Origin: Candidatus Limnocylindria bacterium
Lineage (GTDB): Bacteria; Chloroflexota; Limnocylindria; QHBO01
Direction of reading: 5' to 3'
Assembly: GCA_050692055.1 (NCBI GenBank)
Contig: JBOGTC010000072.1
Coordinates: 12,978-76,977 of the forward strand
DNA: 64,000 bases
Under the pieces are notes generated by a model. It saw only the letters and a program-made list of their open reading frames with translations, searched no databases and was not told where the DNA came from. Position numbers and translations under genes: made by a program. Shown one piece after another: positions 5,607-51,188 of this stretch (the first letter of the stretch is position 1; each line of letters begins with the position of its first letter).

Positions 5607-6191
5607 ATGAATCCTCTCTATCGCGTAGCGCGCCCCATCGCCGTGCTGGCCGCGCTGGCTGCCGTAGCGGGCATCGGACTCGGCATCGCCATCGAGGCCA
5701 CGGCCACCGACGAAGCCGCGATGGCCTCACCGCTGGCGGTCGCCGCCATGTGCGCCTCGCTGGCCGGGCTCGTGGGTCTGGTCATTGCCCTGGCGGGCCT
5801 GGCCGCCGCGCCCAACTCCCCGCGCGGGTCACTCGGCACGGCCGCCCTGGTCCTGGGGCTGTGCGGCGCCACCCTCACTGCCGGCTCGGCCTGGGGCGGG
5901 CTGGTCCTCGCCCCCTGGTTCGCGACCCAGCTGCCCGCTGGCATCACGCCGCCGGAGACGGTCCTCATCGCCTCCGCGCTGTCGTATGCGCTGCTCGGCG
6001 TGGGTGCCGTGCTGCTGGCGGTCAGCCTGCGCCGTGAGCGCCTGGCTCCGGGCTGGCTGGTCGCCCTTCTGATCGTGGCTGGCATCCTGTGCGTGCCGCC
6101 GCTGCTGCCCGCACGTTACACGCTCGTGGTGGTCGCGGTGGCGGCTCTGCTGGTGAGACGCGCGCCCCACGATCAGATCGCGGTCGCCTGA
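5607..6191 (+). CDS. hypothetical integral membrane protein
   Basis: 194 aa, Ala/Leu/Gly-rich with about 6 hydrophobic segments. GGGAG RBS upstream. No family recognised. Confidence 0.5.
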   Translation: MNPLYRVARPIAVLAALAAVAGIGLGIAIEATATDEAAMASPLAVAAMCASLAGLVGLVIALAGLAAAPNSPRGSLGTAALVLGLCGATLTAGSAWGGLVLAPWFATQLPAGITPPETVLIASALSYALLGVGAVLLAVSLRRERLAPGWLVALLIVAGILCVPPLLPARYTLVVVAVAALLVRRAPHDQIAVA

Positions 6192-6505
6192 ATGGCGCGA
6201 GCCGCGGCGCCCAGGAGGAGCTGTTGCGCCCGGTTGTCGTGACGGGTGCGGCCGACGACTTGTGCGTCCGTGCCGAGCCGCCTTCTCTGTTCACGTGGGC
6301 ACGTCGTATCAATGCGCGGCGTGTGCAATTTATCGGGTCTGACCGCGCCTGGAGGCACGACCGAAGGGCCTTCTCAGCGGATCAACGTGCACCAGCGGCG
6401 CATTGATGCAGGCTGCTGGGCCTCTTGGGCTGTCAGCGCTCGGATAAGTTGCAGGAGGCGAGCAATACGTAGCGATGGCGCCGCGCTGCCCGGTGATGGC
6501 GCCGC

Positions 6506-7534: not shown

Positions 7535-7655
7535 CGGTTCGGATGATCTCACGCAGCCCGCCATAGCAATCGCAAGGCCACCGGAGGAGGACCGATGCCG
7601 TGGCGCGGCGGGTCAGCCGCTGGTCACGCTATCCCGGCTCTGGTCTCATGCAGCC

Positions 7656-37577: not shown

Positions 37578-37584
37578 TGTAGCC

Positions 37585-40095
37585 ATGCGTCCGTGGCAGC
37601 TGGCCATCAAGCGGCTCATCGATGTCGGGCTCGGGGCCGCGGCGACGCTCATCCTCCTGCCCGTGGGGATAGTGATTGCCCTGGCGATCGCGGTCGATTC
37701 CTCCGGCGGCCCAATCTACGGCGCGCGCCGCGTCGGCCGCCACGGCCGCGAGTTCACGATGTGGAAGTTTCGCACCATGGCGCGCGGCGCCGACCGCGCG
37801 GGCCCTGGTGTCACCGGCGCATGGGACTGGCGCGTGACCCGCGTCGGGGCCGTGCTTCGACGGACAAAGCTCGACGAGCTTCCCCAGCTGTTCAACGTTC
37901 TTGTCGGCGACATGAGCCTCGTCGGCCCCCGGCCGGAGTCGCCGAAGTACGTCGCGCGATGGACCGAGGCGGAGCGTGGCGTGCTCGGCGTTCGGCCCGG
38001 CGTCACCGGGCCGACGCAGGTCGCATACGTCGACGAAGAGGAGCGGCTGGTGGGCGACCCCGACGAGGTGTACGAGCGCGAGCTGATGCACGCCAAGCTG
38101 GCGATGGATCTTGCCTACGTGCGAAACATCTCACTGCGCGGTGACCTGGTCCTCGTGTGGCGCACGATCGCCGGCATCTTGAGTTCCACGCGCCGCCGGA
38201 CGAATCGGCCGCGACGCCGTTATACCCTCGCCGAGCGGCTGGGGAGCATCCGCCTGCCGGCGCTTCTCCTCGACGCGGCATTGGCCGCCATGGCGGCTGC
38301 CCTAGCGGTCGGGCTGCGCATCGATCGGAACAACCTCCTCGCCGCCGCGGCCGAGTACTGGGTCTTCGTACCGCTCGCGGCCTTCGTGCGGCCTGCCGGA
38401 TTCGCGGTCGCCGGCGCATATCTGCGCGTGTGGCGGTACCCCACGGTGAGCGACGCCGCCCTGATCGTGAGCTCGTTGACGGCCGGATCCCTGGTCATGA
38501 CGCTGGCGATCTTCGTGGTCATGCAGCCGTGGAGCTTCCCGGGCACGGTCGGCTTCCCCCGCAGCGCGATCATCATCGAGCTCCTGCTCTCGGTGCTCAT
38601 GCTGGGCGGCATCCGGCTCGGCGCGCGCATTCGACAGGAGGGCGTCGAGGCCGCTGACGCTGCACTGGTCAACGGACCGCCGCGCCCGGTGCTCATCTAC
38701 GGAGCAGGCGAGGCAGGCGCCCTGCTGGCGCGTGAGATGCGTCGCAGCCGGCTGCTGCGACTCGAGCCCGTCGCGTTTCTCGACGATGACCCCACCAATC
38801 ACGGCAAGCGCATCTACGGCGTTGAGGTGCTGGGAGGCCTGAGTGACCTGCCGGCGGTCACGCTGGAGCGCGAAGTCAGCGAGGTGATCGTCGCGCTGCC
38901 GCGCATCAGCGGCGCGCGCCTGCGCCGGGTAGTGACCCTGAGCGAGGCTGCAGGCATTCCGATCCGCACGCTGCCCGGCGTCGACGAGCTGCTGGACGAG
39001 ACGGTCACGGTGAACAAGGTGCGCCCTGTCCGTGTCGAGGACCTGCTCCGCCGTGAGGCGAATGACATCCCGGAGGAGCCAATGGCACAGCTGGTGCGCG
39101 GCCGCCGGGTCGTCGTCACCGGAGCGGGCGGCAGCATCGGCTCCGAGCTGTGCCGCCAGGTCGCCGCGTTGGGCGCAGCGCGCGTCATCCTGTTCGAGCG
39201 CGCGGAGACGCCGCTCTTCTACATCGACGAGGAGCTGCGCCGCCGCTTCCCGGCCGTCGAGGTGGCCGCCGTGCTCGGCGACGTCACCGACGAGCGGACG
39301 GTCCTGCGCGCTTTCGAACGCGAACGACCGGACGTGGTGCTTCACGCGGCCGCGCACAAGCACGTCCCGCTGTCCGAGGGGAACGTGGCGGCTGCCGTGC
39401 TCGCCAACGTCGGCGGGACGCGCATCGTCGCGGAGGCAGCCGCCAGGACCGGATGCGGTTCGTTCATCTTCATCAGCACCGACAAGGCGGTGGATCCCTC
39501 CTCGATCATGGGTGCGACGAAGCGTCTCGCAGAGCTCGTGGTGCAGGAGGTCGGCTGCGCGGCGTCGGGACGGTTCATCACCGTCCGCTTCGGCAACGTC
39601 CTCGGCTCGCAGGGCAGCGTCCTGGAGCTCTTTCGGCAGCAGATCGCGGATGGCGGGCCGGTGACGGTGACGCATCCCGACATGACCCGCTACTTCATGA
39701 CGATTCCCGAGGCAGTACGGCTCATTCTTTACGCCGGGGCGGCCGGACAGCCGGGCCATGTCCACGTATTGAACATGGGACGGCCGTTGCGCATCGTGGA
39801 CATGGCGCGCGACCTGATCCGCCTCTCCATTCCATCGGGCGAGAAGGACATCCAGATCGTCTTCACCGGCCTGCGTCCCGGCGAGAAGCTGGAGGAGACG
39901 CTGTTCGGTGCGGGAGAGGACGCGATCGCCACCGAGTCACCCTGGCTCCTGGTGGCGCGCCAGACGCAGCCCACGGACCGATACGGCTCTTCCGCCAGCC
40001 AGGCTGCCCGCGAGATGGAGGAGCTGGCCCGACAGGGCGCCGACGAAGCGCTGAGGCGGCAGCTCGTCGGCGAGGGCGTTCCCTCGACTGCATGA
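37585..40095 (+). CDS. fusion: PglC-like monotopic phosphoglycosyl transferase + membrane-anchored PglF/WbpM/CapD-like NDP-sugar 4,6-dehydratase
   Basis: The N-terminal ~200 aa carry 'KRLIDV', 'KFRTM' and 'KLDELPQLFNVLVGDMSLVGPRP'. Four TM helices follow, then a CoA-binding-like Rossmann 'VLIYGAGEAG'. The SDR domain carries 'VVVTGAGGSIGSEL' and 'STDKAVDPSSIMGATK'. Confidence 0.85.
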   Translation: MRPWQLAIKRLIDVGLGAAATLILLPVGIVIALAIAVDSSGGPIYGARRVGRHGREFTMWKFRTMARGADRAGPGVTGAWDWRVTRVGAVLRRTKLDELPQLFNVLVGDMSLVGPRPESPKYVARWTEAERGVLGVRPGVTGPTQVAYVDEEERLVGDPDEVYERELMHAKLAMDLAYVRNISLRGDLVLVWRTIAGILSSTRRRTNRPRRRYTLAERLGSIRLPALLLDAALAAMAAALAVGLRIDRNNLLAAAAEYWVFVPLAAFVRPAGFAVAGAYLRVWRYPTVSDAALIVSSLTAGSLVMTLAIFVVMQPWSFPGTVGFPRSAIIIELLLSVLMLGGIRLGARIRQEGVEAADAALVNGPPRPVLIYGAGEAGALLAREMRRSRLLRLEPVAFLDDDPTNHGKRIYGVEVLGGLSDLPAVTLEREVSEVIVALPRISGARLRRVVTLSEAAGIPIRTLPGVDELLDETVTVNKVRPVRVEDLLRREANDIPEEPMAQLVRGRRVVVTGAGGSIGSELCRQVAALGAARVILFERAETPLFYIDEELRRRFPAVEVAAVLGDVTDERTVLRAFERERPDVVLHAAAHKHVPLSEGNVAAAVLANVGGTRIVAEAAARTGCGSFIFISTDKAVDPSSIMGATKRLAELVVQEVGCAASGRFITVRFGNVLGSQGSVLELFRQQIADGGPVTVTHPDMTRYFMTIPEAVRLILYAGAAGQPGHVHVLNMGRPLRIVDMARDLIRLSIPSGEKDIQIVFTGLRPGEKLEETLFGAGEDAIATESPWLLVARQTQPTDRYGSSASQAAREMEELARQGADEALRRQLVGEGVPSTA

Positions 40096-42308
40096 CATCC
40101 GCACCGGGAGCCTGGACGGGGCAACGGCGGACGCTTGCGCTCGGCTTGCAGGCGTGGACGTTCGCGTTCGTGGCGCTCTTCGGTGGGACGGTGACCGCCC
40201 AGCACGCCACGCTGCGTGCAATCGTGATCGTCGGCGTGTTCGTGCCGCTGGTCGCGTGGGCCGTGCTCCGGCTGCGCGGACCGCGCGACGGCATCGACAT
40301 GGCGATCCTCGTTGGCCTGGCCGCGCACGCCGCAGTCGCGCTGGCCAGCCTCGACGCTCAGGGCAGCCTGGAGGCGTTGGGCGCCGCGATCGGATTCGCC
40401 CTCCTCTTCTGGTTCATGCGGCAGGTGGGGGCCTCGCCGCATAACCGGCGGCTCGTCGCCATCTCCGCGTGTGGGGCCATCACGTTCTGGCTGGTGCTGA
40501 CCGCGTTCGCATGGATCATCGAGAAGGTGGCATGGGTGACGGCCACCGGGACGATGCCCGAGCTCGAGTCGCGTCAGGCGTTCGTATGGGGGTCACCGAA
40601 CACCCACCCGATGCTCGTGCTCCTCGCCGTGCCGTTCGTGCTCTGGCTGCCGCAGGGCCTCCCGCGGAGGATCATGGCCGGGCTGCTGATGGCCGCAGCG
40701 GTCATCGTGGTGCCGCTCAGCATGGGCCGTGCCGGCTGGCTCGGTCTGGCCGTCGCCGCAATTGCCCTCGAGCCGCTCCACGGGTGGCCGCTCAGCCGGG
40801 CGGCCGCGTCGAGGCTCGGATGGTTGCGGCCCGGGCGCGTGATGGCCACGGCGGCGCTGGTCCTGGTCCTCGGCTGTGCGGCGCTCGTGACGACGATGCC
40901 CGCGGCCGTCATGGCCAACGCTCTGGGCCCTCGAGCGTCAATCTGGGCGCAGAGCGTGGCGCTGTTCGGCGCGGACCCGTTGACCGGCAGCGGACCATCG
41001 ACCTGGTCGTGGGCACGTCTCCAGCACGTTCCCGACTTCGCCGACCGGGTGGGCGTCACGTACGCGCACAACGTGCCCCTGCAGACCCTGGCCGACGGCG
41101 GCTTGATGCTCGGCCTGGCGCTGGCCCTCGTGCTCGGGGCGTGGGGAGCCGCCACGTGGCGTCGCTGCCACGAGCTGGATCGCGCACAGCGCATCGCCGT
41201 CGCCGTGCTGGCGGGATCGGCCGCCGCATCGCTGCTCGACGATTTCAGCTTTCTGCCGGCCGTGACCGCCCTCGTGGTGACCATCGCCGCCTGGGTCGTG
41301 GCGTACCCGACATCGCCCGCTCCGCACCCGAGGATCGGGGCACGCGGGCTGGTCCTCCCGCTGGCCGTCGCCGCGCTGGGCCTGGTCTCGCTGCCCGCCG
41401 CGGCCGGCGTCGCGACCGCTAGGCTCCACTCCGCCGACGCGCGCGCCGCATCGGTCGCCGGGTCGTGGGACGTCGCCCAGCGGCAGTTCGCCGCGGCGGC
41501 CGCGCACTACCCGGCGAATCCGTCGTACCGGCTCGGTCACGGGCTGGCCCTGTACCACCTCGATCGTGTCGAGGAGTCCCGGGAGGCATACGAGCTGGCC
41601 CGATCGCTCAATGTCGGGGATCCGAGGCCATGGGGGGCGCTGGCAGCACTGTCAGCCGATGCCGCCACCCGCGAGGCGCTCCTGGAAGCGGCCGCCCGGC
41701 GCTCGAACGACGCGCAGTACGCATATCGCCTGGCCAAGAATCTGGCGGCAGACGGCAGCGCATCCGACGCCGCCTGGTACCTGGCGATCGCCGCTGTCCT
41801 GGAGCCGAGGATCCATGGCGTAGTAGGCGATCCGAGCGATCTCGTCCGTGACCGCCTGCCCGCCGCCGTTCGGCTCACCGGAGCGGCCGCGCGCGGCGAT
41901 CCGGCCGAGGCGATCTGGAACGCCGACCTCGCGGCTGGCGCGATTCCGGTTGGAGGTCCGCCTTCGTGGCACGCCGTGGCTGCCGGCAACAGGGGGGCGC
42001 TTGATGACGCGGAGCGCTGGCTGGACGCCGCTCGCGCGCAGGATCCACATGCGGCCCGCACGTGGGAGGCGGTTGCCGCGATCGCCCGGCTTCGTTGTGA
42101 CGTGGCGGCCGAGCAGCGTGCGCTGTCGGCCATCGACAAGACGCGGGACCGCGACCCGCTTGAGCCGGCAGGGTCCGTGCGCGTGACCCGCAATGGCATC
42201 TACGGCGAGCCGGAGCTGGGCGACTACCAACCGCTCGCCGAGACGGCGTTTCCCGACCTGGAGCGCTGGCCGCTCGGTCTCGTCGACCTGCCCGCGTGCG
42301 ACGGCTAG
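40092..42308 (+). CDS. O-antigen ligase/polymerase-like (Wzy_C) polytopic protein with C-terminal TPR-like domain
   Basis: There is an ATGA overlap with the upstream gene. Motifs 'GRAGWLGLAVA' and 'YAHNVPLQTLADGGLMLGLAL' mark the Wzy_C loop. The C-terminal ~330 aa are helical repeats ('YRLGHGLALYHLDRVEESREAYELA'). Confidence 0.7.
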   Translation: MTSAPGAWTGQRRTLALGLQAWTFAFVALFGGTVTAQHATLRAIVIVGVFVPLVAWAVLRLRGPRDGIDMAILVGLAAHAAVALASLDAQGSLEALGAAIGFALLFWFMRQVGASPHNRRLVAISACGAITFWLVLTAFAWIIEKVAWVTATGTMPELESRQAFVWGSPNTHPMLVLLAVPFVLWLPQGLPRRIMAGLLMAAAVIVVPLSMGRAGWLGLAVAAIALEPLHGWPLSRAAASRLGWLRPGRVMATAALVLVLGCAALVTTMPAAVMANALGPRASIWAQSVALFGADPLTGSGPSTWSWARLQHVPDFADRVGVTYAHNVPLQTLADGGLMLGLALALVLGAWGAATWRRCHELDRAQRIAVAVLAGSAAASLLDDFSFLPAVTALVVTIAAWVVAYPTSPAPHPRIGARGLVLPLAVAALGLVSLPAAAGVATARLHSADARAASVAGSWDVAQRQFAAAAAHYPANPSYRLGHGLALYHLDRVEESREAYELARSLNVGDPRPWGALAALSADAATREALLEAAARRSNDAQYAYRLAKNLAADGSASDAAWYLAIAAVLEPRIHGVVGDPSDLVRDRLPAAVRLTGAAARGDPAEAIWNADLAAGAIPVGGPPSWHAVAAGNRGALDDAERWLDAARAQDPHAARTWEAVAAIARLRCDVAAEQRALSAIDKTRDRDPLEPAGSVRVTRNGIYGEPELGDYQPLAETAFPDLERWPLGLVDLPACDG

Positions 42309-43042
42309 GAGGCCGGAGGACGGTGGAGGCGACCTGCGAGATGAGAGCGAAGCGGGCGCAGTACGGCCAGGGTCGGGTAGAGCATGGGCGTCGCTCGGCC
42401 CAGCCGTCGCGCAAGCGCCGGGATCAAGCCCACGGCGCGCAGCTCCCCCACCCAGCCCGGGAAGAGCCGCGCGATGCGGTGCCTCGACAGTCCATGCACG
42501 GCGGGATTCATCGGGTTGGCGTATCGCACGTCGTACCAGACCAGCCAGCCGTCCGGTCGCAGGACGCGCGCGATCTCAGCCGCCACGGCCTGCTCCAGCT
42601 CGTCGCTCGGCAGCGAGCTGAACAGCGTGCTCGCCACGGCGACGTCGAAGGAGGCATCCCCGAACGGGAGATCGTCTGCCGAAGTGGCGAGAAACCGGGC
42701 GTTCAACGCGCGCGCTCTCGCCCGTTCAACGCGTTCCTCAAGGAGGTCCACGCCGGTCCATTCGAGCTGCAACCCTCCGCCCAGGGCGAGCTCGGCGGTC
42801 CGGCCGTCGCCGCAGCCGAGGTCGATCACCCGCGCACCTGCATCGGCGACGGAGGCCGCCAGGTCCGCGAGGAGCCGCGAGCGGTGATCCGATGCCAGCC
42901 GCGCGTACCCAGGGTTAGCAGCGCTCCACAGCGCGTCTCGCCCCACGGACGCATAGCCGGCGTAGGTCGCCCGCACGTGATCGAGGATCCCCGCACGCCG
43001 CTGGGATTCGAGCCAGTCCCGGCGTTGGTCTCTCCGTACCAT
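42305..43042 (-). CDS. class I SAM-dependent methyltransferase
   Basis: 'VIDLGCGDGRTA' is motif I, with 'VLRPDGWLVWYD' also present. It overlaps the ligase-like gene tail-to-tail by 4 nt. Confidence 0.8.
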   Translation of the reverse strand: MVRRDQRRDWLESQRRAGILDHVRATYAGYASVGRDALWSAANPGYARLASDHRSRLLADLAASVADAGARVIDLGCGDGRTAELALGGGLQLEWTGVDLLEERVERARARALNARFLATSADDLPFGDASFDVAVASTLFSSLPSDELEQAVAAEIARVLRPDGWLVWYDVRYANPMNPAVHGLSRHRIARLFPGWVGELRAVGLIPALARRLGRATPMLYPTLAVLRPLRSHLAGRLHRPPAS

Positions 43043-43086
43043 CTACCCATCGATTCTGCCCCAAGGGCGGCTGGTACGGTACGGCG

Positions 43087-43446
43087 GTGACCACATCGGC
43101 GCTCGGCCACACCGAGACTGGCTGGAGGCCGCGCAGCATCATCGCGGCCGCGTTCGTCGTGTCCTTTCTGGTCGTGCAACTCACGGTCCCCATCCTGGCG
43201 TTGACCGGCCCCAGGCCAGCGCGCTTCGGCTGGCACATGTACACCACCCTCACCCCAGTGCCAGACGCGTGGATCGAGGATGCGACCGGTGAGCTGGATC
43301 GGGTCGCGGTCGATCAGCTCCTTCTGCGGCGACGATCCGAGGCCGACCTGTCGGACGTGCTCGTCCGCGAGCTGTGCCGCAGACCCGGAGCGGCGGCCGT
43401 GATCACCGAGCGCGCGGACGAGCGGATTCGGACGGTCTGTCGATGA
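43087..43446 (+). CDS. small single-pass membrane protein coupled to the HTTM gene
   Basis: 119 aa with one TM ('IIAAAFVVSFLVVQLTVPILAL') and then 'RFGWHMYT'. There are two Cys in the tail. An ATGA overlap links it to the next gene. Confidence 0.55.
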   Translation: MTTSALGHTETGWRPRSIIAAAFVVSFLVVQLTVPILALTGPRPARFGWHMYTTLTPVPDAWIEDATGELDRVAVDQLLLRRRSEADLSDVLVRELCRRPGAAAVITERADERIRTVCR

Positions 43447-44651
43447 ATCGGCTCAAGGACGTGGTCGAGCGGACCGTCAGCTCCCGGGCCGCGGGACTGG
43501 CGCGCATGGCGGTCGGGCTGGCGGCGGCGGTCAAGGCGGTGGAGCTCGCACCCGTTCTCACCCGCTTCGCGGAACCGGGGCCGCTTCGGATTCCGTACGC
43601 CGAGGGCCTGCCGACGGTGGCCGATCTCCCGGCAGCCGCCGTCACCCTGGTCTGGCTGCTCGCGGCACTCGCCTTCGCGGCCGGGGCGACGACCGCAGTG
43701 ACGGGCACCGTTCTCGTCGTGGTGCTGGCGGCAGTGCTGGCGAGCGACCAGCAGCTGTACAGCAATCATCTCTATCTGCTCACGCTGCTCGTCGCCCTGC
43801 TGACGCTCGCGCGAGCAGGCGCCGCGCTCTCGGTGGATGCGCGTCGAGGAGGCGGCCGCGATCGGATCGCGGACTGGCCGCTGCAACTGGTGCGCGCCCA
43901 GGTGAGCATCGTCTACCTGTTCGCGGCCCTGGCGAAGGTGACGGGCGTGTACCTGTCGGGGAGCGTGGTGGCCGTCACGTTGCGGCGCGACGGCCCCCTG
44001 GCCATCCCGGCCGAATGGCGCGTCTTCGAGCTGATGGCCGCCGCCGCCATGCTCGCCATCCTCGTGGAGCTGTGGCTGTCGATCGCGCTGTGGCGTCCGC
44101 GCTGGCGGCCCGCCGCGTTCGCGACGGGCTTCCTCATGCACGTCGGGATCGCGGTCTGGTTCGCTCCCACCATCCAGCTCGTGATCTTCTCGCTCATCAT
44201 CCTGGCCCCGTACGTCCTCTTCCTTGATGCGCAACCGGCCAGTCGAGTCGCGGTCTGGGACGACTCCTGCGGCTTCTGCCGCGGAACGATCGGCTGGGCA
44301 CGAAGATTGGACTGGCTGCATGCCATCCGCTTCGTTCCCGGATCGGACACGGCTGCGGTCAGGGCCCTCGGCATCAGCCAGGAGGAGGCCGATCGCGCGC
44401 TCCAGCTGCGCTTCGGTGGTGTGAACGTCTCTGGGTTCCGGGCCGTTTCGGCAATGCTCGAGGTGCTGCCGGTCTCGTTCCTGTGGGCGCCCTTGCTGAG
44501 GCTGCCACCGGTCCGAGCGGTGGGCGACGCTGCCTATCGCCGGGTGGCGCAGCGACGCATGTGCAGCGTCATGGCGGGCCTCCAACCGGCTCTTGCTGCG
44601 GCGGCGAATGTCGCCGACCGTGGCGTGGCTTCCGAGCCGCCGACCGGGTGA
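43443..44651 (+). CDS. fusion: HTTM (vitamin-K-dependent gamma-carboxylase-like) membrane domain + DCC-family thiol-disulfide oxidoreductase domain
   Basis: 'SNHLYLLTLLVALLTLARAGAALSVD' parallels the GGCX/HTTM core '[26 protein letters not shown]'. The C-terminal 'VWDDSCGFCRG' is the DxxCxxC DCC (DUF393) motif. Confidence 0.75.
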   Translation: MNRLKDVVERTVSSRAAGLARMAVGLAAAVKAVELAPVLTRFAEPGPLRIPYAEGLPTVADLPAAAVTLVWLLAALAFAAGATTAVTGTVLVVVLAAVLASDQQLYSNHLYLLTLLVALLTLARAGAALSVDARRGGGRDRIADWPLQLVRAQVSIVYLFAALAKVTGVYLSGSVVAVTLRRDGPLAIPAEWRVFELMAAAAMLAILVELWLSIALWRPRWRPAAFATGFLMHVGIAVWFAPTIQLVIFSLIILAPYVLFLDAQPASRVAVWDDSCGFCRGTIGWARRLDWLHAIRFVPGSDTAAVRALGISQEEADRALQLRFGGVNVSGFRAVSAMLEVLPVSFLWAPLLRLPPVRAVGDAAYRRVAQRRMCSVMAGLQPALAAAANVADRGVASEPPTG

Positions 44652-44696
44652 CGATGAGCCTAGTGCCCTCAGGCACCAGATCTGTACGGTTGCGCC

Positions 44697-45572
44697 ATGT
44701 CTGAGCAGGTCCGTACGCTGAGTCGCCCGACCGACGCCGCTCGCATGCCCGGCTATACGTCGCTGGCGAGGGCATTGGTCGGCCTGCTGATCATCGGCCC
44801 GGTGCTGGCCTGGAGCGTCCAGGCGCTCGTGAGTGGCTGGAACTTCGTGGACCTCCATGTCTACCTGGGGGCGGCCGAGAACCTCGTACGTCACGGCAAC
44901 CCCTACCTCGCCAGTGACGCGACGACCGATCTGCTGCACTATCACTACGCGCCGTGGTTCGCCCTCCTGTTCGTGCCATTGCTGTCGCTTCCGCTCGTTT
45001 TCACCGAATGGATCTGGGCCGCGGCGCTCCTCGCGGCGATGGTGCCGGCGCTGATGGTCTTTCGCGGTGATGGCATGGCTGCCGCACCGCTCGCAGTCCT
45101 CATGGGCGCGCTGCTCCTGGGCCAGGCGATGGGCGGCAACGTGCAGGGCGTGCTTCTTGCGCTCCTGATCTGGCGCCTCGACAGGGTGGATGGGCCAGTC
45201 TGGGTCGGCCTCGCCGCCAGCTTGAAGGCGATCCCGATCCTGCTCGTCCTCTATTACGCCGGCCGCCGGCAGTGGCGAAGGGCGATGATCGCGGGGGTGG
45301 TGACCGCAATCCTCGTGGGGCCCATGCCCCTGTTCGACATCCCGCCCGACAATCTCTGGCCAGGGGTCACCGGCCTCTATGCCATCTCCCCCGTCCTGTG
45401 GGTCGCCTCGGCGATCATCGCTGCAGGCTGCGCGCTGCGGCTCGCCGGGGGCCGATACGGCCGGCTGGCGGCCGCGGTCGCCATCGTCGCCGCCCTGCCG
45501 CGCCTCTACCCATTCGACATCAGCTGGCTGCTGCTTGGCGTCCCTCCCTCACGCAGGGACGACTCGGCATGA
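44697..45572 (+). CDS. DUF2029 / GT87-like polytopic glycosyltransferase (paralog c)
   Basis: 'VDLHVYLGAAENLVRHGNPYL', 'YHYAPWFALLFVPL' and 'SLKAIPILL'. Confidence 0.75.
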   Translation: MSEQVRTLSRPTDAARMPGYTSLARALVGLLIIGPVLAWSVQALVSGWNFVDLHVYLGAAENLVRHGNPYLASDATTDLLHYHYAPWFALLFVPLLSLPLVFTEWIWAAALLAAMVPALMVFRGDGMAAAPLAVLMGALLLGQAMGGNVQGVLLALLIWRLDRVDGPVWVGLAASLKAIPILLVLYYAGRRQWRRAMIAGVVTAILVGPMPLFDIPPDNLWPGVTGLYAISPVLWVASAIIAAGCALRLAGGRYGRLAAAVAIVAALPRLYPFDISWLLLGVPPSRRDDSA

Positions 45573-46459
45573 CCCTGCTCGATCGCGTCCGCTCACGGCG
45601 CTTCCTGCACGACGCGCTGGCCGTGGCGGGGATCATCGTCGTCGTGTTCGTGTGGTGGCTGATCGGCTTCAACGACTACCAGCACGATGCGCGCGCCTAC
45701 TGGACCGTCGAGCTGTCCGACCCGTACGCCGCGGCCGAGGTCGGCGGCAAGGATGCCTACCTGTACTCCCCCCTCTTCGCCCAGCTGACGTCGCCCCTGA
45801 CGCTCCTGCCGTGGGAGGTCTTCCGCCCGCTCTGGGCGGCGGTCAACCTCGGCGCCCTGGTCTGGCTGGCGGGACCGATCATCGGCGCGCTGCTGCTGGT
45901 CGTCCCCGGATCACCGCTGATCGACGAGGTCGGCACCGGCAACATCCACCTGCTCATCGCGGCCGCCATCGTCGCCGGCTTCCGCTACCCGCCTGCCTGG
46001 GGATTCAACCTGCTGACCAAGGTGACGCTGGGCATCGGCCTCCTGTACTTCGTCGGGGCACGCCAGTGGCGGCATCTCGCGCTCGCGATCGGCCTCACCG
46101 CAGCCATCAGCCTGGTCTCGTTCGCCGTGGCCCCCGGCCTGTGGCTTGCCTGGATCGAGGTGCTCATCACGAACAGCGGTGCGCGGATCCCCGACGACAT
46201 CGCGGTGATCCCTGGCTCGCTGGCGCTGCGAACGGCCATCGCCGGGATCATCGCCATCGGCGGCGGCATCCTCGGCTGGCGCTGGACGGCCGCGGTCGCG
46301 GCCACGCTGGCGCTGCCGGTCCCGTGGTCCTCGGGTCTGAGCGTCCTCGTCGCCGCCATCGCGCTCTGGCGCTTTGACATGCTGCGCGAGCCACGCCGGC
46401 CATTCCGCACCCACCTTCGACCCAGCACACCAGGGCAACGCGAGGCCCAGACGGCGTGA
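45569..46459 (+). CDS. DUF2029 / GT87-like polytopic membrane protein (paralog d, divergent)
   Basis: An ATGA overlap marks the true start at 45569. 'AYLYSPLFAQLTSPL' and 'GNIHLLIAAAIVAG' are present, and the protein is polytopic. Confidence 0.6.
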   Translation: MTLLDRVRSRRFLHDALAVAGIIVVVFVWWLIGFNDYQHDARAYWTVELSDPYAAAEVGGKDAYLYSPLFAQLTSPLTLLPWEVFRPLWAAVNLGALVWLAGPIIGALLLVVPGSPLIDEVGTGNIHLLIAAAIVAGFRYPPAWGFNLLTKVTLGIGLLYFVGARQWRHLALAIGLTAAISLVSFAVAPGLWLAWIEVLITNSGARIPDDIAVIPGSLALRTAIAGIIAIGGGILGWRWTAAVAATLALPVPWSSGLSVLVAAIALWRFDMLREPRRPFRTHLRPSTPGQREAQTA

Positions 46460-47976
46460 CGGCGCTGCGTATCCCGGCCAGCTGGATCGCGGTGGCCGCC
46501 TTCTTCTTCCTGGTGGCGCTCCCGCGGCCGGCCATCCCGCTCATCGACGGTGACGTGTGGTGGCACATCCGGGCCGGGCGGGAGATGCTGTCCAGCGGAT
46601 CGGTGCCCAGGGTCGACTCCTGGAGCATCGTCGGCGCCGGCATGCCGTGGACCAGCCAGGACTGGCTCAGCAACGTGGCGCTGGCGCTCGGGTACGGCGC
46701 CGGGGAGATCGGGCCCACGCTCCTGTCCATTGGCTGGGCGCTGCTGGTGGTGGCCGCGCTGGCGCTGCTGTGGTCGGCAATCGGCTTCCGGGTCCGCGCC
46801 GTGGGTTGGCTCGGCCGAATCCTGCTGCTCGCGGCAGGCCTCGTCGTCTCCGGCCCGACCCTCGGGGTCAGGGTTCAGGTCGTGGACCTGACACTGGCGG
46901 CGGCGGCCATGGCCGTCCTGTGGCATTACCAGGCACGCCGCAACGCCCGATGGCTGGTCGCCCTGCCGGTGCTGGCAGTGGCCTGGGCCAACCTGCACGC
47001 GGGTTGGCCGCTGCTCTTCCTGCTCGGCGGTGCGCTCGTGGTGGGCGAGGGGGCCGACCGGCTCGTCCGGCGGCGCCTCGGGCCGGCGCCGCTCAGCTGG
47101 CGCGAGCTCGGATGGCTGTGTGCCGCCCTGGTCGTGGCCCTGGCCGCGATCAGCGTCAATCCCAACGGGCCGGCGCTGTACCTCTATCCACTCGAGACGT
47201 CGGGCATCTCGGCACACCGCGCCTACCTCGCCGAGTGGCAGGCGCCGAACGTGGGCACGTTCGTGGGCCAGGTCTACCTCGGGTTCCTGGCGCTCGTTGT
47301 GCTCCCCACCCTATGGATCAGTCGCCGCCGGATGCGCGCCGCCGATCTGCTGATCCTGCTGGGAGTCGTGGTCATGGGAGCGGCCGCCGCCCGCTTCCTT
47401 CTGATCGCTGGGCCGATCGGCGCAGCCGTCGCCGCCCTCTACCTGGCGCCGGCGCTGGCTGGTTCGCGGCCTGGCCGGCGCATGGGACCGACCCTCGCGC
47501 GCCTTGCCGTGCCTCGGCCCGATCCGCGCTACTCGGCGCTCAACGCGACCCTCATCGGGCTGGTCGCCGCCGCCGGTGTCACCCTCGCCGTGGCCCGGGT
47601 CTCTCCCAGCGTTCAGGCCGAGTCCATCGCCGGGCACATGCCGGTCGACGCCGTCGAATGGATCCGCGCCAACGATCCGGGCAGCCGCCCCTTCAACGTC
47701 TACGCCTGGGGCGGCTACCTGGGCCACATGCGGCCGACACACCCGGTCTTCATCGACGGGAGGTCCGACATCTACGGCGACGAGCCGATCCGCCGCTACG
47801 CCGCTACGATCAACCTCGAGACCGATCCGCAGGCCGTCCTCGACCGGCACGAGATCGATCACGTGCTCTTCCAGCCCGACCAGCCGCTTGCGGAGTGGCT
47901 CGACGCCAGCGAAGCGTGGCGACAGGCCTACGCAGATGACGTCGCGGTGGTCTGGGTCCGGTCAGGGGCCGATTGA
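46456..47976 (+). CDS. uncharacterised ~500-aa polytopic membrane protein, putative GT-C (paralog X1)
   Basis: GTGA coupling to the upstream gene. 'DGDVWWHIRAGREMLSSGSVPRVDSWS' follows TM1, then about 10+ TM helices. The soluble C-terminal domain carries 'AWGGYLGHM...FIDGRSDIYGD'. Confidence 0.55.
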   Translation: MTALRIPASWIAVAAFFFLVALPRPAIPLIDGDVWWHIRAGREMLSSGSVPRVDSWSIVGAGMPWTSQDWLSNVALALGYGAGEIGPTLLSIGWALLVVAALALLWSAIGFRVRAVGWLGRILLLAAGLVVSGPTLGVRVQVVDLTLAAAAMAVLWHYQARRNARWLVALPVLAVAWANLHAGWPLLFLLGGALVVGEGADRLVRRRLGPAPLSWRELGWLCAALVVALAAISVNPNGPALYLYPLETSGISAHRAYLAEWQAPNVGTFVGQVYLGFLALVVLPTLWISRRRMRAADLLILLGVVVMGAAAARFLLIAGPIGAAVAALYLAPALAGSRPGRRMGPTLARLAVPRPDPRYSALNATLIGLVAAAGVTLAVARVSPSVQAESIAGHMPVDAVEWIRANDPGSRPFNVYAWGGYLGHMRPTHPVFIDGRSDIYGDEPIRRYAATINLETDPQAVLDRHEIDHVLFQPDQPLAEWLDASEAWRQAYADDVAVVWVRSGAD

Positions 47977-49446
47977 GGCGGAGGCCTCCCGCGGGCAGCT
48001 CTCGCGCAGCAGGAGGACGGAGATCTCGTCGCGGTGCGCCTCGCACCAGCCTGCCTCCTGCGCGGCACCCCGCACGAGCGGGGCCGACGGCGGCAGGAGG
48101 ATCGCCTCAACCCCGTAGCGTTCCGTGAGCTCGGCCCACCCGTCGTCCGCGGCGCGGATGGTGGAGTAGTCCTGGAGGATCGCATCGCCATACATGTCGC
48201 TGCGGCCGTCGACGAAGACGCGCCCGCCATCCTCGTAATGGCGGTAGATGGCGTACCCGCCCCAGTCGTAGTCGGCCAGTACGCGGGCGTCGGGCAACAC
48301 GCGCTCGAGGGCGCCGGCGCCCTCCACCGGAAAGCCGCGGCGCAGCGCCGCATCGGCGCTCACCGCGCCCGGAATGATGACGAGGACGGCGGCGACCAGG
48401 ATCGCGGTGACGCCGGTCTCCAGCACCCGGCGGCCCGCATCGGTCCGGGGCCTCTCTGGCCGGTCCCACCGGAGCAGGCGATCGTCCAGGCCGAGCGCCA
48501 GCGTCGGCAGGGCGAACAGGGCGGCAAGCGGCGCGTTGCGCGTCGCGACCAGGGCCATTACGATCCCCACCAGCGACAGCGTGGTGAGCCAGCCGGGAGT
48601 CGCACGCCCGCCGTTCAACGCCAGCCCCGCGATCAGCAGGAGCAGGCCCCAGTGCCGTGGGTCGTGGAAGTCGGGCGACTGCCACTCCTGGATGTTCCGG
48701 ATGCCCCAGTCGCTTCCGTCCAGGTAGCGGAGCGGGTAGACGAGCCCCTCGATCCCGGCGGGCGTCAACGCCGAAGCGGCGAAGGCGGCCGCGACCATGC
48801 CGATCACCGTCCAGCGGCGCGGCGCCATGACCGTCCGGCCAAGAAGCGAGAAGAGCGCGTAGAGGCCGAGCACGCCGAGGCCAACGACGTAGAGGCCGTG
48901 GACGTTCGCCCACAGCGCGAAGAGCGGCACCACCAGCCAGGGTCTGAGCCGATGCTCCGATCGGAGGCGCATGAGCAGGCCGATGAGCAGCGCGACCAGC
49001 AGCCACGAGATGGCCTGCGGCCGCACGGTGGCGAACGGCGCGAAGACGTAGGCCGCCAACGCCAGCAGCGCGGCGATCGACGCGACACGCACGCCCTCGG
49101 CGCGCAGGGCCAGGCCAACCACCAGCGGCGCTGCGCCGATGATGACGCCGAACACGACCCCCGCCGGGACGGCACCACCGCTCGACACGAGCAGGTGGAT
49201 GAACAGCTGGCCGAGCCATTCGTGGAGGACCCATGGCTGTCCGGCCCAGGTGAAGGAGAAGGGATCCGTGGACGGCACGCTTCCCGATTCGGCGATCAGC
49301 CGGCCGGTGGTCACGTGCCAGAAGTAGTCCGCGTCGACAAGCCCGCGAGCCACCACCAGCGCCACGAAGAAAGCGACGTAGACCGCGGCCACCAGCGCGA
49401 ACGGGCTGGGCAGCCAGCGCGGGGCGGCTCGGCTCGGCTGGGTCAT
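47962..49446 (-). CDS. uncharacterised ~500-aa polytopic membrane protein, putative GT-C (paralog X2)
   Basis: It has the same architecture and motifs as X1: 'DADYFWHVTTGRLIAESGSVPSTDPFS' and 'DWGGYAIY...FVDGRSDMYGD'. It is convergent with X1, with a 15-nt overlap. Confidence 0.55.
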   Translation of the reverse strand: MTQPSRAAPRWLPSPFALVAAVYVAFFVALVVARGLVDADYFWHVTTGRLIAESGSVPSTDPFSFTWAGQPWVLHEWLGQLFIHLLVSSGGAVPAGVVFGVIIGAAPLVVGLALRAEGVRVASIAALLALAAYVFAPFATVRPQAISWLLVALLIGLLMRLRSEHRLRPWLVVPLFALWANVHGLYVVGLGVLGLYALFSLLGRTVMAPRRWTVIGMVAAAFAASALTPAGIEGLVYPLRYLDGSDWGIRNIQEWQSPDFHDPRHWGLLLLIAGLALNGGRATPGWLTTLSLVGIVMALVATRNAPLAALFALPTLALGLDDRLLRWDRPERPRTDAGRRVLETGVTAILVAAVLVIIPGAVSADAALRRGFPVEGAGALERVLPDARVLADYDWGGYAIYRHYEDGGRVFVDGRSDMYGDAILQDYSTIRAADDGWAELTERYGVEAILLPPSAPLVRGAAQEAGWCEAHRDEISVLLLRESCPREASASIGP

Positions 49447-49535: not shown

Positions 49536-51188
49536 ATGGCCCAGCCCGGACCGATGCCGGTGACGGCGGCACGCACGTCCATAGTCGACCTCGTGGCACT
49601 CACCGTCCTCGCCCTGCTGGCCCGCACCACGGCGGCCCTCCTCGTGCCGGGACCGCCGCACGTCGATGCCGCCTACTACACCCTGGTCGCCGAGCGGCTG
49701 GCCGACGGCCACGGCTTCAGCGTCCCGGTGCTGTGGAGCTTCCTCGAGGTCGGCGGCGGGCTGCCTGCCGATCCGAGCCTGCCGGTGCCGAGCAACGGCC
49801 ACTGGCGACCGCTCGCCTCGATCCTGGCCGCCGGTCCCATGGCGCTGCTCGACGGCGGCTGGCGCGCCGGGCAGCTCATCATGGTGCTGCTCTCCACGCT
49901 CCTCGTCCCGGCGACGTACCTCATCGGCTGGCAGCTGTGGCGCTCGCGCCGCGTGGCCCTGCTCGGCGCACTCCTCGCCGTCCTCGCCGGCCCGCTGCTG
50001 GTCATGTACCCGCTGGTCGAGACCTTCGCTGTGTTCGGCGTCGCCGGCGCGACCGCCCTGTACGCCAGCGTCCGCGCCGTGGATGCCCTCCATCCGGGCC
50101 GGTGGCTGGTCCTGGCCGGCGCGGCGGCGGGTCTGGCGAGCCTGGCCCGCATCGACGGCGTGCTGCTGACCGTCGCGCCGGCCACGGCCTGGCTGGTCAG
50201 CCGCCCGTTCGGCATCGGCCCCTTCGGCTCACCCGCCCGGGCGCTCGCCTGGGGCTCGGCGAGCGCAGTCGCCTTCCTCGTCGTGCTGGGTCCCTGGCTC
50301 GTCCGCGACCTGCTGGTCTTCGGCACGCCGTTCCCGTCCGCCGGCGGGCACACCCTCTGGATCCGCGAGTACAACGAGCAGTTCTCCATCGCGAGCGACC
50401 CGACGCCGGCGACCTACCTGGCCTGGGGACCGCTGAGCATCCTCGCCTCGAAGCTCAGCGCCGCGGTCCAGGTGGTCGGGAGCACGCTGGCGGTGATGGG
50501 CGGCATCTTCGGCATCCTCTTCCTCGCCGGCCTGTGGCTGCATCGCCGCGACCGGCGGCTGGCGCCGTTCATCATCTACGTCGTCGTCCTGTTCGCCGCC
50601 ATGGCGCTCATCTTTACCGTGCACGCGCCGCGGGGCGCCTTCGTCCACTCCGCTCCCGCCTGGCTGCCGTTCGCCTTCCCCATGGCGATCGCCTCGCTGC
50701 CCGCCGTGGCCGGCGCGGCGGGTCGCGCCTGGCGGCTGCTCCGGCGGCCGGCATCCCATCGGCTGATCGAGATGGCGGGGCTGGTGGGCGCCCTCGTCCT
50801 GTCGCTCGCGGGGGGCGCGGGGCTCCTCCTCGGCTGGTCGATGACCCAGGATCGGTACGAAGCGGCCGCGAGGTTCCTCTCGTCCGAGGCCGATGCCGCC
50901 GCGGTCGTGATGAGCGCGGATCCGGCTCGGCTCAACCTGCTCACCGCCAACCCCGGCGTGCCCGCGCCGTTCGATCCGTACCCGGTCATCGAGAAGGTCG
51001 TCGAGGCGTACGACGTCGACTGGCTGGTGGTGGTGCTGCCGCCAGGCGAGTCACGCGATCCACTCGGCCTGTGGGAAGGGGCGAACGCGACCGACATCGA
51101 GGGCAACCACCCGGATTGGCTGCCCGCCGAGGCCGCCTTCGAGGCGGATGGCGTCCGCGTCTTCGATGTCGCCGGGCCGGGCGGCTAG
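49536..51188 (+). CDS. GT39/GT83-like (PMT_2, ArnT-type) polytopic glycosyltransferase
   Basis: 'PHVDAAYYTLVAERLADGHGFS' after TM1, many TM helices, and a C-terminal soluble domain. Confidence 0.65.
   Translation: MAQPGPMPVTAARTSIVDLVALTVLALLARTTAALLVPGPPHVDAAYYTLVAERLADGHGFSVPVLWSFLEVGGGLPADPSLPVPSNGHWRPLASILAAGPMALLDGGWRAGQLIMVLLSTLLVPATYLIGWQLWRSRRVALLGALLAVLAGPLLVMYPLVETFAVFGVAGATALYASVRAVDALHPGRWLVLAGAAAGLASLARIDGVLLTVAPATAWLVSRPFGIGPFGSPARALAWGSASAVAFLVVLGPWLVRDLLVFGTPFPSAGGHTLWIREYNEQFSIASDPTPATYLAWGPLSILASKLSAAVQVVGSTLAVMGGIFGILFLAGLWLHRRDRRLAPFIIYVVVLFAAMALIFTVHAPRGAFVHSAPAWLPFAFPMAIASLPAVAGAAGRAWRLLRRPASHRLIEMAGLVGALVLSLAGGAGLLLGWSMTQDRYEAAARFLSSEADAAAVVMSADPARLNLLTANPGVPAPFDPYPVIEKVVEAYDVDWLVVVLPPGESRDPLGLWEGANATDIEGNHPDWLPAEAAFEADGVRVFDVAGPGG

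Follow-up and report, generated by a model that had tools for sequence, protein, structure and literature searches.

The 64,000-nucleotide stretch analysed here (the window), from a Candidatus Limnocylindria bacterium of the Chloroflexota, contains two overlapping forward-strand ORFs, a small one of 119 aa (43087-43446) and a larger one of 402 aa (43443-44651). Both were confirmed by reading of the sequence, and their GC3 values of 0.83 and 0.85, respectively, are of the coding type. The segments SNHLYLLTLLVALLTLARAGAALSVD and VWDDSCGFCRG were found in the 402-aa product, and RFGWHMYT, C97, and C118 in the 119-aa product. The two genes share an ATGA at 43443-43446 (+), in which the ATG start codon of the larger gene (43443-43445) overlaps the TGA stop codon of the smaller one (43444-43446). 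A longer version of the larger gene starting at GTG 43374 was rejected, because the homologues begin at the position of ATG 43443. The ATGA overlap, already pointed out in a preliminary description of this DNA, is an instance of a conserved tight coupling: the stop of the small gene and the start of the HTTM gene overlap by 1 to 13 nt in 46 of 50 related loci. We refer to loci encoding the small protein and an HTTM-DCC fusion as class A, and to those encoding the small protein and an HTTM protein without DCC as class B; a third architecture class comprises single-chain HTTM + VKGC_lumenal proteins. A small-family homologue was present immediately 5' of the HTTM gene in all class A and class B loci in which this region was available. 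The small gene is absent from single-chain loci and, thus, the split and single-chain arrangements are complementary.

Two GT87-like genes identified by Pfam (44697-45572 and 45569-46459; 44697-46459 in all, +) follow directly downstream on the same strand. The terminator scan gave no terminator-like site between the fusion gene and these genes, and promoter and terminator scanning of positions 42800-48200 gave nothing above shuffle expectation. On the other side of the pair lies a divergent class I SAM-dependent methyltransferase gene (42305-43042, -; Pfam). Its proximity had been taken as informative in the preliminary description, but the gene tables of the compared loci L001-L005 list no such gene; lacking conservation beside the pair, it was rejected as a part of the module and serves as context only.

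In the class A loci of Chloroflexota, GT87-like genes were found in 24 of 26 (20 of 22 after removal of duplicate loci), and a same-strand GT87-like gene directly adjoined the pair in 14. Class B comprises about 25 loci of other phyla, with mostly housekeeping neighbors; none of these (0/25) gave a match with the GT87-like subfamily profile, and a weak Pfam GT87 match was restricted to one Roseiflexaceae locus (L031). The suggested placement in a glycan island thus holds for Chloroflexota but not for class B, and is no inherent property of the module. Confined to one phylum, this linkage could partly reflect inherited synteny.

HTTM and DCC1-like domains of the fusion protein

The 402-aa ORF encodes a real, conserved fusion of an HTTM and a DCC1-like domain. 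Pfam assigned residues 14-262 to HTTM (PF05090; 76.7 bits, E 2.9e-21, gathering cutoff 27.7), covering profile positions 6-256 of 259, and residues 271-373 to the DCC1-like family (PF04134; 56.9 bits, E 5.9e-15, gathering cutoff 27.8), in agreement with the domains initially recognized from the sequence, including the DxxCxxC motif of the latter. The HTTM membrane domain (43482-44228, +) contains eight helices and is the equivalent of GGCX TM1-TM8, and the DCC1-like domain (44253-44561, +), with a thioredoxin fold, is predicted to be cytoplasmic. Alignment of 51 homologues showed invariance of D273, C276, F278, and C279 in the motif D273-x-x-C276-x-F-C279 (44259-44279, +), and of C374. Both Pfam domains were present in all of the best 120 database homologues listed, most of them full length (360-400 aa), which rules out a frameshift artefact. 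Pfam detected HTTM and DCC1-like domains only, and no VKOR domain, in the fusion; the VKGC lumenal domain PF22777 matched neither window protein, and the NCBIfam scan of the fusion, SdpB/SdpA models included, returned no family.

Structure and profile comparisons relate the HTTM part to the vitamin K-dependent carboxylases. In a Foldseek search of the PDB with the AF2 model of the fusion (pLDDT 91.9, pTM 0.87), in which the DCC domain follows the eighth helix, the top 15 matches were all human GGCX (E 6e-8 to 8e-6, TMq ~0.5). With phmmer against PDB sequences, residues 68-176 aligned to GGCX 119-229, and hhalign matched the HTTM profile to GGCX 1-351 (Prob 97.7%, E 2e-12), substantiating the parallel drawn earlier between the HTTM core and the H160 segment of human GGCX. 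A stronger match still was obtained between the HTTM profile and bacterial single-chain proteins of the HTTM + VKGC_lumenal type (Prob 99.8%, E 1.5e-29), and these proteins in turn match GGCX 47-519 (Prob 100%, E 3e-54).

In GGCX, N159 and H160 bind the substrate carboxylate, K218 is the base deprotonating vitamin K hydroquinone, and M401 is stacked against vitamin K's naphthoquinone ring (PMC12647623, which describes the roles of M401, N159, H160, K218, D263, and F299). N108-H109 of the fusion (43764-43769, +) correspond to N159-H160 by hhalign, and K165 (43935-43937, +), corresponding to K218 by phmmer and hhalign, is invariant in 86 of 86 aligned HTTM ORFs. E209 and F249 align to D263, with Glu replacing Asp, and to F299; when the HTTM profile is aligned directly to GGCX, hhalign is unreliable past residue 185 and its global mode is not trustworthy, so that equivalences beyond 185 depend on two successive profile alignments, bridged by single-chain bacterial orthologues. 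Altogether, the HTTM part keeps GGCX D153, N159, H160, K218, H287, and F299, with D263 replaced by Glu and W223 by Tyr or Phe, and the catalytic positions, N108-H109 among them, are conserved across all three architecture classes. Y395 of GGCX anchors the Glu carboxylate. In the window pair, the Y395 position is Ala and the N290 position is Ile and, therefore, carboxylase chemistry is not secured. Giant-virus enzymes with Ile at the N290 position were argued to be epoxidases only (PMC13486548).

The small membrane protein and its proposed relation to TM9/LL9

Members of the small-protein family are 100-130 aa long and were found in at least seven phyla, with 705 clusters at 50% identity; the family search also gave an artefact, a 1934-aa repeat protein matched via a short 'DGS..VDV' hairpin. 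The AF2 model of the 119-aa protein (pLDDT 87) indicates a single N-in TM helix (DSSP residues 15-40; 43129-43206, +), followed by a conserved loop and a predicted extracytoplasmic alpha/beta mini-domain of ~65 aa carrying the conserved C97 and C118. The loop motif R43-P-A-R-F-G-W49-H-M51-Y52 (43213-43242, +) is the proposed equivalent of residues 393-402 in LL9, a lumenal loop of GGCX, and the helix that of TM9. Within the family, R43, W49, and M51 are invariant, and P44, R46, F47, and Y52, as well as the two cysteines C97 and C118, are near-invariant. W49 and M51 aligned to GGCX W399 and M401 in the profile comparisons, and the near-invariant helix residues Q31 and P35 fall on Q374 and P378 in the hhalign register. 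As this helix has 26 residues, with Q31 and P35 conserved and aligning to GGCX TM9, a cleavable signal peptide was rejected.

The small-protein profile matched the C-terminal extension of the single-chain proteins in hhalign with Prob 92% and E 6e-7, compared to E 0.18 for the reversed template and a best P of 0.026 in ten column shuffles. Given the full-length single-chain profile, it selected the TM9/LL9 region and no other helix (E 3.5e-5), and it aligned directly to human GGCX 352-537 in the same register (E 0.011). Upon removal of the TM helix from the profile, the match fell to E 0.0016 and Prob 16%. Pfam and NCBIfam scans assigned no family to the small protein (only a chance NCBIfam match, E 0.17) or to 59 of its relatives; among 59 family members, one matched VKGC_lumenal_dom (PF22777; E 0.063) and none matched DUF5819 (PF19136), even at E <= 10. 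The small-protein profile did not reach GGCX directly among PDB sequences, and its sole match there, a Rib-domain surface protein aligned via the short 'DGS..VDV' hairpin, is regarded as spurious. Foldseek with the isolated small-protein model found nothing significant in the PDB (best E 0.3, unrelated). An exhaustive representative search with the family gave no fused forms among the best 150 matches listed.

These profile alignments support, with good confidence, a TM9/LL9-type subunit. Left open in the preliminary description as subunit or substrate, the 119-aa protein is best read as a subunit equivalent to GGCX TM9 + LL9; a role as substrate is disfavored by the alignment and by conservation peaking in the quinone-covering loop. 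The register also lends support to the initial impression that RFGWHMYT recalls the segment following HTTM in carboxylases.

A putative split GGCX-like enzyme and its alternatives

With the catalytic HTTM residues retained and TM9/LL9 residing in the small protein, the gene pair can be read as a minimal quinol enzyme of the GGCX type in split form, devoid of propeptide clamps, an assignment that we favor as probable. From the homology, residue conservation, gene coupling, and distribution observed directly, we infer complex formation, topology, chemistry, and substrate along the following lines. The 402-aa protein would supply the equivalent of TM1-TM8, with K165 as the quinol base and E209 as its acidic partner, N108/H109 binding the carboxylate, and F249 acting as the CO2-stacking Phe. 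The 119-aa protein would contribute TM9 and LL9 in trans, so that W49 and M51 seal the pocket for the quinone on its outer side, and its small extracytoplasmic domain, probably disulfide-bonded, would replace the large propeptide-binding clamps. The complex might use menaquinol and O2 to make, on the outer side of the cytoplasmic membrane, a strong base, which would deprotonate a carbon beside a carboxylate on a substrate other than a propeptide-bearing protein. The pair has slightly better than even prospects of being a quinol-dependent epoxidase or base generator. Carboxylation would be the simplest outcome of the deprotonation, although we consider it unlikely to be the actual reaction. A glycan-linked substrate is a tentative suggestion; in Chloroflexota, where the pair is embedded in same-strand GT87-like arrays, an envelope glycoconjugate, or the lipid that carries it, would therefore be the probable substrate. 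It is tempting to speculate that a menaquinol/O2-dependent split GGCX-type enzyme acts on a non-protein substrate, namely an envelope glycan or lipid-linked sugar acid produced by the neighboring GT87-type machinery of Chloroflexota, which it would carboxylate or whose carbanion beside a carboxylate it would use in another way, epimerisation being one example, with the cytoplasmic DCC providing a built-in, VKOR-independent quinone service. We regard this full scenario as a long shot; if true, it would mean that vitamin K-dependent chemistry is applied to the bacterial cell surface.

The DCC1-like domain is less readily placed. Judging from the 9-TM topology of GGCX, in which TM6/7 are monotopic, its TM8-TM9 linker is cytosolic. 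Following the TM8 equivalent, the DCC domain and its CxxC should therefore be cytoplasmic by homology, on the membrane face opposite the active site, whereas the cysteines of the small protein are predicted to be extracytoplasmic. This predicted location bears on the question of the membrane face, raised in the preliminary description, and makes the direct VKOR analogy awkward. Moreover, DCC is restricted to a Chloroflexota clade and one divergent Actinomycetota locus and is dispensable in most of the family. Hence, the view of the fusion as a GGCX and VKOR analogue in one polypeptide is weakened. The cytoplasmic CxxC would rather be an accessory, most likely connecting the quinone cofactor with the pool of thiols in the cytoplasm, through regeneration or redox gating; that it recycles or reduces the quinone itself we propose with reserve.

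A self-sufficient cycle, in which the fusion combines GGCX- and VKOR-like steps and the small two-Cys protein is substrate or redox partner, would be in line with the conserved fusion of HTTM and CxxC domains, the recurrence of HTTM-DCC fusions in Firmicutes, the two near-invariant cysteines of the small protein, and the confirmed tight translational coupling. However, the small protein aligns with TM9/LL9, is most conserved in the quinone-covering loop rather than around its cysteines, and is conserved to the same degree in the ~25 loci that encode an HTTM protein without DCC. In addition, the thioredoxin fold of DCC is soluble, unlike the membrane CxxC of the VKOR type, and the two sets of cysteines are predicted on opposite faces. 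Consequently, we give this explanation little credence. Nearly as improbable is a thiol:quinone oxidoreductase free of epoxidase or carboxylase chemistry, with HTTM as a quinone-binding module as in the DoxX/MauE or DsbB/VKOR types. It draws on the invariance of the CxxC and a third Cys, on weak matches to MauE (DoxX clan) that class B HTTM proteins give in their C-terminal half (E 3.7e-5 and 0.0019), and on relatives named DoxX/SURF4 + DCC by JGI annotators, but leaves unexplained why the residues of GGCX chemistry (K218, N159/H160, F299, and D263 as Glu) and the LL9-like loop are retained, the former even where DCC is missing.

The embedding of the pair in same-strand GT87-like arrays of Chloroflexota could also point to a non-catalytic membrane partner of GT87-like glycosyltransferases, a scaffold or lipid-carrier handler with GGCX-like residues kept by descent. 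The putative catalytic residues, however, are invariant over lineages of 45-60% identity and across phyla, and class B pairs occur in the absence of a GT87-like profile match, which makes this the least credible of the explanations. The split GGCX-like enzyme would explain the absence, in short HTTM proteins, of TM9 and the conserved lumenal loop (GGCX 374-418), a region considered essential for carboxylation. The small membrane-protein family would putatively supply the TM9/LL9 part lacking so far in a minimal enzyme of two subunits that is widespread, giving both gene families a concrete annotation.

Relation to known systems

The chemistry of GGCX employs vitamin K hydroquinone and O2 to form a base whose strength suffices for the carboxylation of an unactivated carbon. 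To our knowledge, it has been shown for animals and for a single pathway of antibiotic synthesis. Its use by bacteria would be testable, as the DCC-less form occurs in the cultured hosts Nocardioides sp. Root240 and Pseudonocardia spirodelae, and mechanistic work would gain from the pair a system far smaller than human GGCX. Two further leads come with the Chloroflexota version, namely its predicted cytoplasmic CxxC domain and its glycan context with GT87. Human GGCX shares the fold of its membrane core with the fusion (Foldseek E 6e-8), and its TM9/LL9 residues W399 and M401 have conserved equivalents. Nevertheless, GGCX is one polypeptide, whereas the window system comprises two, with the TM9/LL9 piece encoded upstream. 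Clamps A and B and the C-terminal domain of GGCX have no counterpart: with an extracytoplasmic part of only ~65 aa, the window system lacks the clamp A/B propeptide-binding domains. The fusion also differs by its DCC1-like domain after TM8, and the pair by the Ala and Ile replacing Y395 and N290.

Bacterial single-chain VKGC orthologues (HTTM + PF22777, 420-500 aa), compared here via relatives other than MloH, are homologous in HTTM (Prob 99.8%) and TM9/LL9 (Prob 92%). They score ~255-270 bits in HTTM versus 77 bits for the window fusion, and possess a full lumenal domain of ~150 aa but no DCC. MloH from malonomycin biosynthesis, their characterized representative, is cited as an aspartyl carboxylase (PMC12647623; bioRxiv 10.64898/2026.08.19.745780), so that HTTM proteins from bacteria can no longer be said to lack an assigned function.

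Giant-virus truncated VKGC-like epoxidases share the minimal HTTM core with the fusion, including K218, Glu at D263, and Ile at N290 (PMC13486548). They lack residues 374-418, and no small ORF supplying that region was found (PMC13486548), whereas in the window an upstream gene would provide it; desaturases and VKOR are the fusion partners or neighbors of the viral enzymes, in place of the DCC and GT87 of the window pair. VKOR and VKOR-thioredoxin fusions are conceptually alike in joining a quinone-handling membrane protein to a CxxC thioredoxin fold, but the catalytic CxxC of VKOR is located within the membrane, close to its outer or lumenal side, and that of the window protein belongs to a DCC1-like domain that is soluble and predicted to be cytoplasmic.

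A pair of this kind has been described in a 2026 preprint, in which AF3 predicted that DUF5819 and HTTM-DCC1-like proteins of Melghirimyces thermohalophilus together reconstitute a complex resembling GGCX (bioRxiv 10.64898/2026.08.19.745780). The two pairs appear analogous, both placing a single-TM partner beside HTTM + DCC1-like, and in the predicted Melghirimyces complex partner residues touch the vitamin K pocket. The partner families differ: the DUF5819 protein has ~190 aa, and the window family of 100-130 aa is set apart by the lack of PF19136 matches. Hosts and GT87 context differ likewise, the pairs described here belonging to Chloroflexota and other soil phyla.

The gene pair and its three architectures

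In the window, whose G+C content is ~70%, a 119-aa ORF with a GTG start (43087-43446, + strand) lies directly upstream of a 402-aa ORF with an ATG start (43443-44651, + strand), the two overlapping by the tetranucleotide ATGA. Their third-position GC (0.83 and 0.85, respectively) is typical of coding sequence in this window. In the large protein, Pfam profiles recovered HTTM (PF05090; residues 14-262, 76.7 bits) and DCC1-like (PF04134; residues 271-373, 56.9 bits), confirming both domain assignments of the preliminary description, whose quoted peptide motifs were all found in window ORFs. The small protein matched no family in Pfam, and an NCBIfam scan contributed none for the pair.

The fusion is genuine and conserved. 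A search covering 5.8 billion proteins yielded 181 homologues, the best 120 of which all carry both Pfam domains at 47-61% identity, the majority of these 120 being full length (360-400 aa); named sources among the matches listed are Chloroflexota, Limnocylindria, and one Zixibacteria MAG. In an alignment of 51 homologues, D102, Q103, Q104, N108, H109, K165, E209, and H233 are invariant, as are D273, C276, F278, C279, and C374. The AF2 model built with this alignment (pLDDT 91.9, pTM 0.87) consists of eight helices and, C-terminal to them, an alpha/beta domain, and the top 15 Foldseek matches of this model in the PDB were all human GGCX, the vitamin-K-dependent carboxylase (E 6e-8 to 8e-6, ~275 aligned columns, TMq ~0.5).

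A GTDB scan with the fusion alignment, using one genome per species, provided 80 loci, to which the window and the contigs of five fusion homologues (L001-L005) were added, and classes were assigned by local HMM searches of the locus ORFs. Class A (the window, L001-L024, and L036; 22 distinct loci) combines the small gene with HTTM-DCC and is hosted by Chloroflexota-type MAGs, with one labelled Zixibacteria as the sole exception. Class B (L025-L050) pairs the small gene with a ~280-aa HTTM-only protein in hosts including Acidobacteriota, Gemmatimonadota, Planctomycetota, Verrucomicrobiota, Roseiflexaceae, a betaproteobacterium, and Actinomycetota, the last with the cultured Nocardioides sp. 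Root240 and Pseudonocardia spirodelae. Class C (L051-L085) encodes a single chain of 420-500 aa, composed of HTTM and VKGC_lumenal_dom (PF22777), without the small gene. In all class A and B loci retaining the upstream region, the small gene is located directly 5' of the HTTM gene on the same strand, and in 46 of 50 loci the overlap between its stop and the best start of the HTTM gene amounts to 1-13 nt, which bears out the tight coupling proposed from the window. This near-universal overlap and the complementary distribution of the three classes are new.

A few loci deviate. In the MAG locus L024 (4935-6132), the HTTM and DCC parts occupy two overlapping reading frames, for which an assembly indel of one base is the most likely cause, rather than a natural split. 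L052 contains a small-protein homologue broken over two frames (3279-5747 and 4639-4962), the first half being in the frame of the HTTM ORF; a frameshift error is the probable cause and could mimic a fusion. An HTTM protein in an Actinomycetota MAG (L040, 4971-6035) has a degenerate DCC-like tail with the CAHC motif kept and the Asp of DxxCxxC gone (Pfam DCC1-like E 0.0012, below cutoff); it may represent a fusion in decay or an intermediate stage.

The small protein and the GGCX active site

Each of the five homologue contigs carries an ORF of 106-128 aa abutting or overlapping the HTTM-DCC start. An exhaustive profile search placed 705 clusters (50% identity) in the small family at E <= 1e-3 and 499 at E <= 1e-10, and the best 150 of the 705 are standalone proteins of ~100-190 aa, bar one repeat-protein artefact. 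R43, W49, M51, R83, and C97 are invariant in a 59-sequence alignment of this family, with Q31, P35, L39, P44, R46, F47, Y52, G68, and C118 near-invariant. In the AF2 model of the small protein (pLDDT 87), a helix of 26 residues leads through a loop into a small alpha/beta domain. Its first beta-hairpin ('..DG(S/T)..pVD(L/V)..', residues ~59-83, window 43261-43335) attracts spurious profile matches to Rib-domain repeats, namely PDB 6s5y and a 1934-aa protein matched in 21 stretches; automated annotation of the family could be misled by it.

For comparison with human GGCX, residues 1-351 and 352-537 were used, checked to be 100% identical to PDB chain 13ib_A. The small-family profile aligned collinearly with GGCX 352-537 in hhalign (E 0.011) and with the C-terminal extension of class C proteins (Prob 92%, E 6.4e-7), which itself matched GGCX 352-537 (Prob 99%, E 3.6e-18). 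In control comparisons, the reversed template gave E 0.18 and the best of ten column shuffles P 0.026. Compared with the full-length profile of class C (484 columns, nine helices), that of the small family picked the region of the ninth helix and its adjoining lumenal loop (TM9/LL9; E 3.5e-5), and without its TM helix the register was unchanged (E 0.0016). Q31 and P35 thereby correspond to GGCX Q374 and P378 in TM9, F47, W49, and M51 to Y397, W399, and M401 in the loop, and G68 and R83 to G418 and R436, while GGCX Y395 is not conserved, the small protein having Ala at that position. In GGCX structures, LL9 forms a cover over the vitamin K pocket, with M401 stacked on one side of the naphthoquinone ring and F286 on the other; movement of M401 and M402 traps CO2, and the Glu carboxylate is bound by Y395 (PMC12647623). 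Residues 374-418 are held essential for carboxylation (PMC13486548). With this profile register and the role of LL9 in GGCX, the small protein is best read as the TM9 and LL9 piece of a carboxylase-like enzyme, encoded by a separate upstream gene. The likening of one of its motifs to the segment after HTTM in carboxylases was thus well placed, hhalign setting the loop on LL9, and of the two roles suggested for the protein, that of a subunit is the one favoured here.

Residue equivalences for the HTTM domain derive from direct hhalign up to residue 185 and from a class C bridge past it. D102, N108, H109, K165, and H233 of the window protein correspond to GGCX D153, N159, H160, K218, and H287, and Y170, E209, M232 (Leu in most relatives), I236, and F249 to W223, D263, F286, N290, and F299. 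Conservation of these positions holds within classes A and B, and class C retains the GGCX residues themselves. The D263-to-Glu and N290-to-Ile pattern recurs in giant-virus 'epoxidase-only' VKGC homologues (PMC13486548), and carboxylation is therefore one possible reaction of the enzyme.

Topology and alternative readings of the pair

GGCX has nine TM helices, with TM6 and TM7 monotopic and a lumenal domain after TM9 (PMC12647623), which requires TM8 to end at the cytosolic face. In the AF2 model, the DCC domain comes after the eighth helix; together with the basic residues at the N-terminus of the fusion (R3, K5, R10, R15) and in the loop spanning residues 123-144 (five Arg), which obey the positive-inside rule, this predicts a cytoplasmic location for the DCC CxxC. 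R14 and R16 precede the helix of the small protein, which would thus be oriented N-in, C-out, so that C97 and C118 would lie outside and may form a disulfide. We infer that the HTTM active site and the CxxC lie on opposite membrane faces. This argues against direct VKOR-like action at the active site, and hence against the rival model of the preliminary description, in which one polypeptide unites GGCX- and VKOR-like functions and the small protein may be the substrate. It is possible that a quinone or epoxide, once diffused to the inner leaflet, is reduced by the CxxC. The DCC domain is a recurrent accessory and not essential; class B proteins lack it, and a Firmicutes pair combines it with another partner family, DUF5819 (bioRxiv 10.64898/2026.08.19.745780).

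A pure thiol:quinone oxidoreductase would accord with sub-threshold matches of MauE (DoxX/MauE clan) to the C-terminal half of the HTTM proteins in class B loci L025 (E 0.0019) and L048 (E 3.7e-5), a weak similarity that hints at a deep relationship of HTTM with other membrane modules that are associated with quinones and partnered by thiol-redox proteins. Weighed against this reading, the rival model above, and a scaffold role for the pair, a split, minimal GGCX-like quinol enzyme is the best-supported interpretation. Since a ~65-aa domain stands where GGCX has its large propeptide clamps, a propeptide-bearing Gla protein is an unlikely substrate of such an enzyme. Retention of the carboxylate-binding Asn-His and the CO2-stacking Phe favors carbanion chemistry adjoining a carboxylate; with Y395 and N290 lost, an 'epoxidase used for something else' is a possible alternative. 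MloH shows that genuine carboxylases exist among the bacterial homologues of VKGC (PMC12647623). For DUF5819, a family that differs from the small family of the window, both the HTTM-DCC architecture and the concept of a GGCX-like partner with a gene of its own were reported in August 2026 (bioRxiv 10.64898/2026.08.19.745780). New is the recognition of another small-subunit family, unannotated and far more widespread, as the probable counterpart of TM9/LL9. The main interest of the split-enzyme reading is that it makes a broad family testable.

Glycan island and GT87 linkage

An envelope-glycan island spans ~26 to 51 kb of the window. It includes a GT4 gene, genes for a sulfatase-like protein and a spermine-synthase-like large membrane protein (29774-31813, +), a GT87 gene upstream of a Wzx-like gene, a second GT4 gene, and a DegT aminotransferase gene adjoining an 849-aa single ORF (37546-40095, +), in which a PglC-type phosphoglycosyl transferase (Bac_transf) is fused to a PglF-type sugar 4,6-dehydratase (Polysacc_synt_2). 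A Wzy_C and TPR protein is also encoded; a methyltransferase gene just precedes the small and HTTM-DCC genes, and two GT87 genes just follow them. Three large membrane proteins of ~500-550 aa (46456-47976, +; 47962-49446, -; 49536-51188, +) come next, followed by a HisKA_3/GerE two-component system (kinase, then response regulator). The three membrane proteins matched no Pfam family, with one sub-threshold PMT match (18 bits), and could represent GT-C-type enzymes of this pathway that lack annotation. Downstream of the pair, L005 has a similar run, with no-Pfam proteins of 501 and 527 aa preceding HisKA_3 and GerE. Large membrane proteins with a spermine/spermidine-synthase-like domain also occur near the pair in the Chloroflexota loci L003 (10212-12503) and L005 (1104-3137), in both of which an FAD amine-oxidase/DAO-type gene recurs.

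Five successive + strand genes extend from 43087 to 47976 with gaps of <=45 nt, and a terminator scan detected no terminator-like site 3' of the fusion gene. Only 44 bp (43043-43086) separate the start of the divergently oriented methyltransferase gene from the GTG of the small gene. As a scan around this interval found no sigma-70-like promoter, the promoter of the + strand operon is probably located within the methyltransferase gene or belongs to a type other than sigma-70.

A profile built from the GT87-like neighbours of the pair detected GT87-like genes in 24 of 26 class A loci (20 of the 22 distinct loci, the remaining two being contigs of <5 kb), with a copy directly adjacent on the same strand in 14 distinct loci. 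This GT87 linkage of the DCC-bearing clade is new. The same profile had zero matches in class B or class C loci, and the operon-like Pfam neighbours of class B are mostly unrelated (topoisomerase I, PurL/PurQ, CoaE, RecN-like, MsrAB, MacB), except for a weak GT87 and a GT4 in the Roseiflexaceae locus L031 and a GT4 in L041. The anticipated linkage to glycan genes in relatives thus holds for class A and not for class B; the two-gene module is therefore autonomous, and its glycan association is a Chloroflexota feature. In L005, a deposited 464-aa minus-strand call without Pfam match (6239-7693) overlaps a plus-strand ORF whose match to the GT87-like profile is much stronger (E 4e-65 versus E 8e-30); the minus-strand call is probably wrong.
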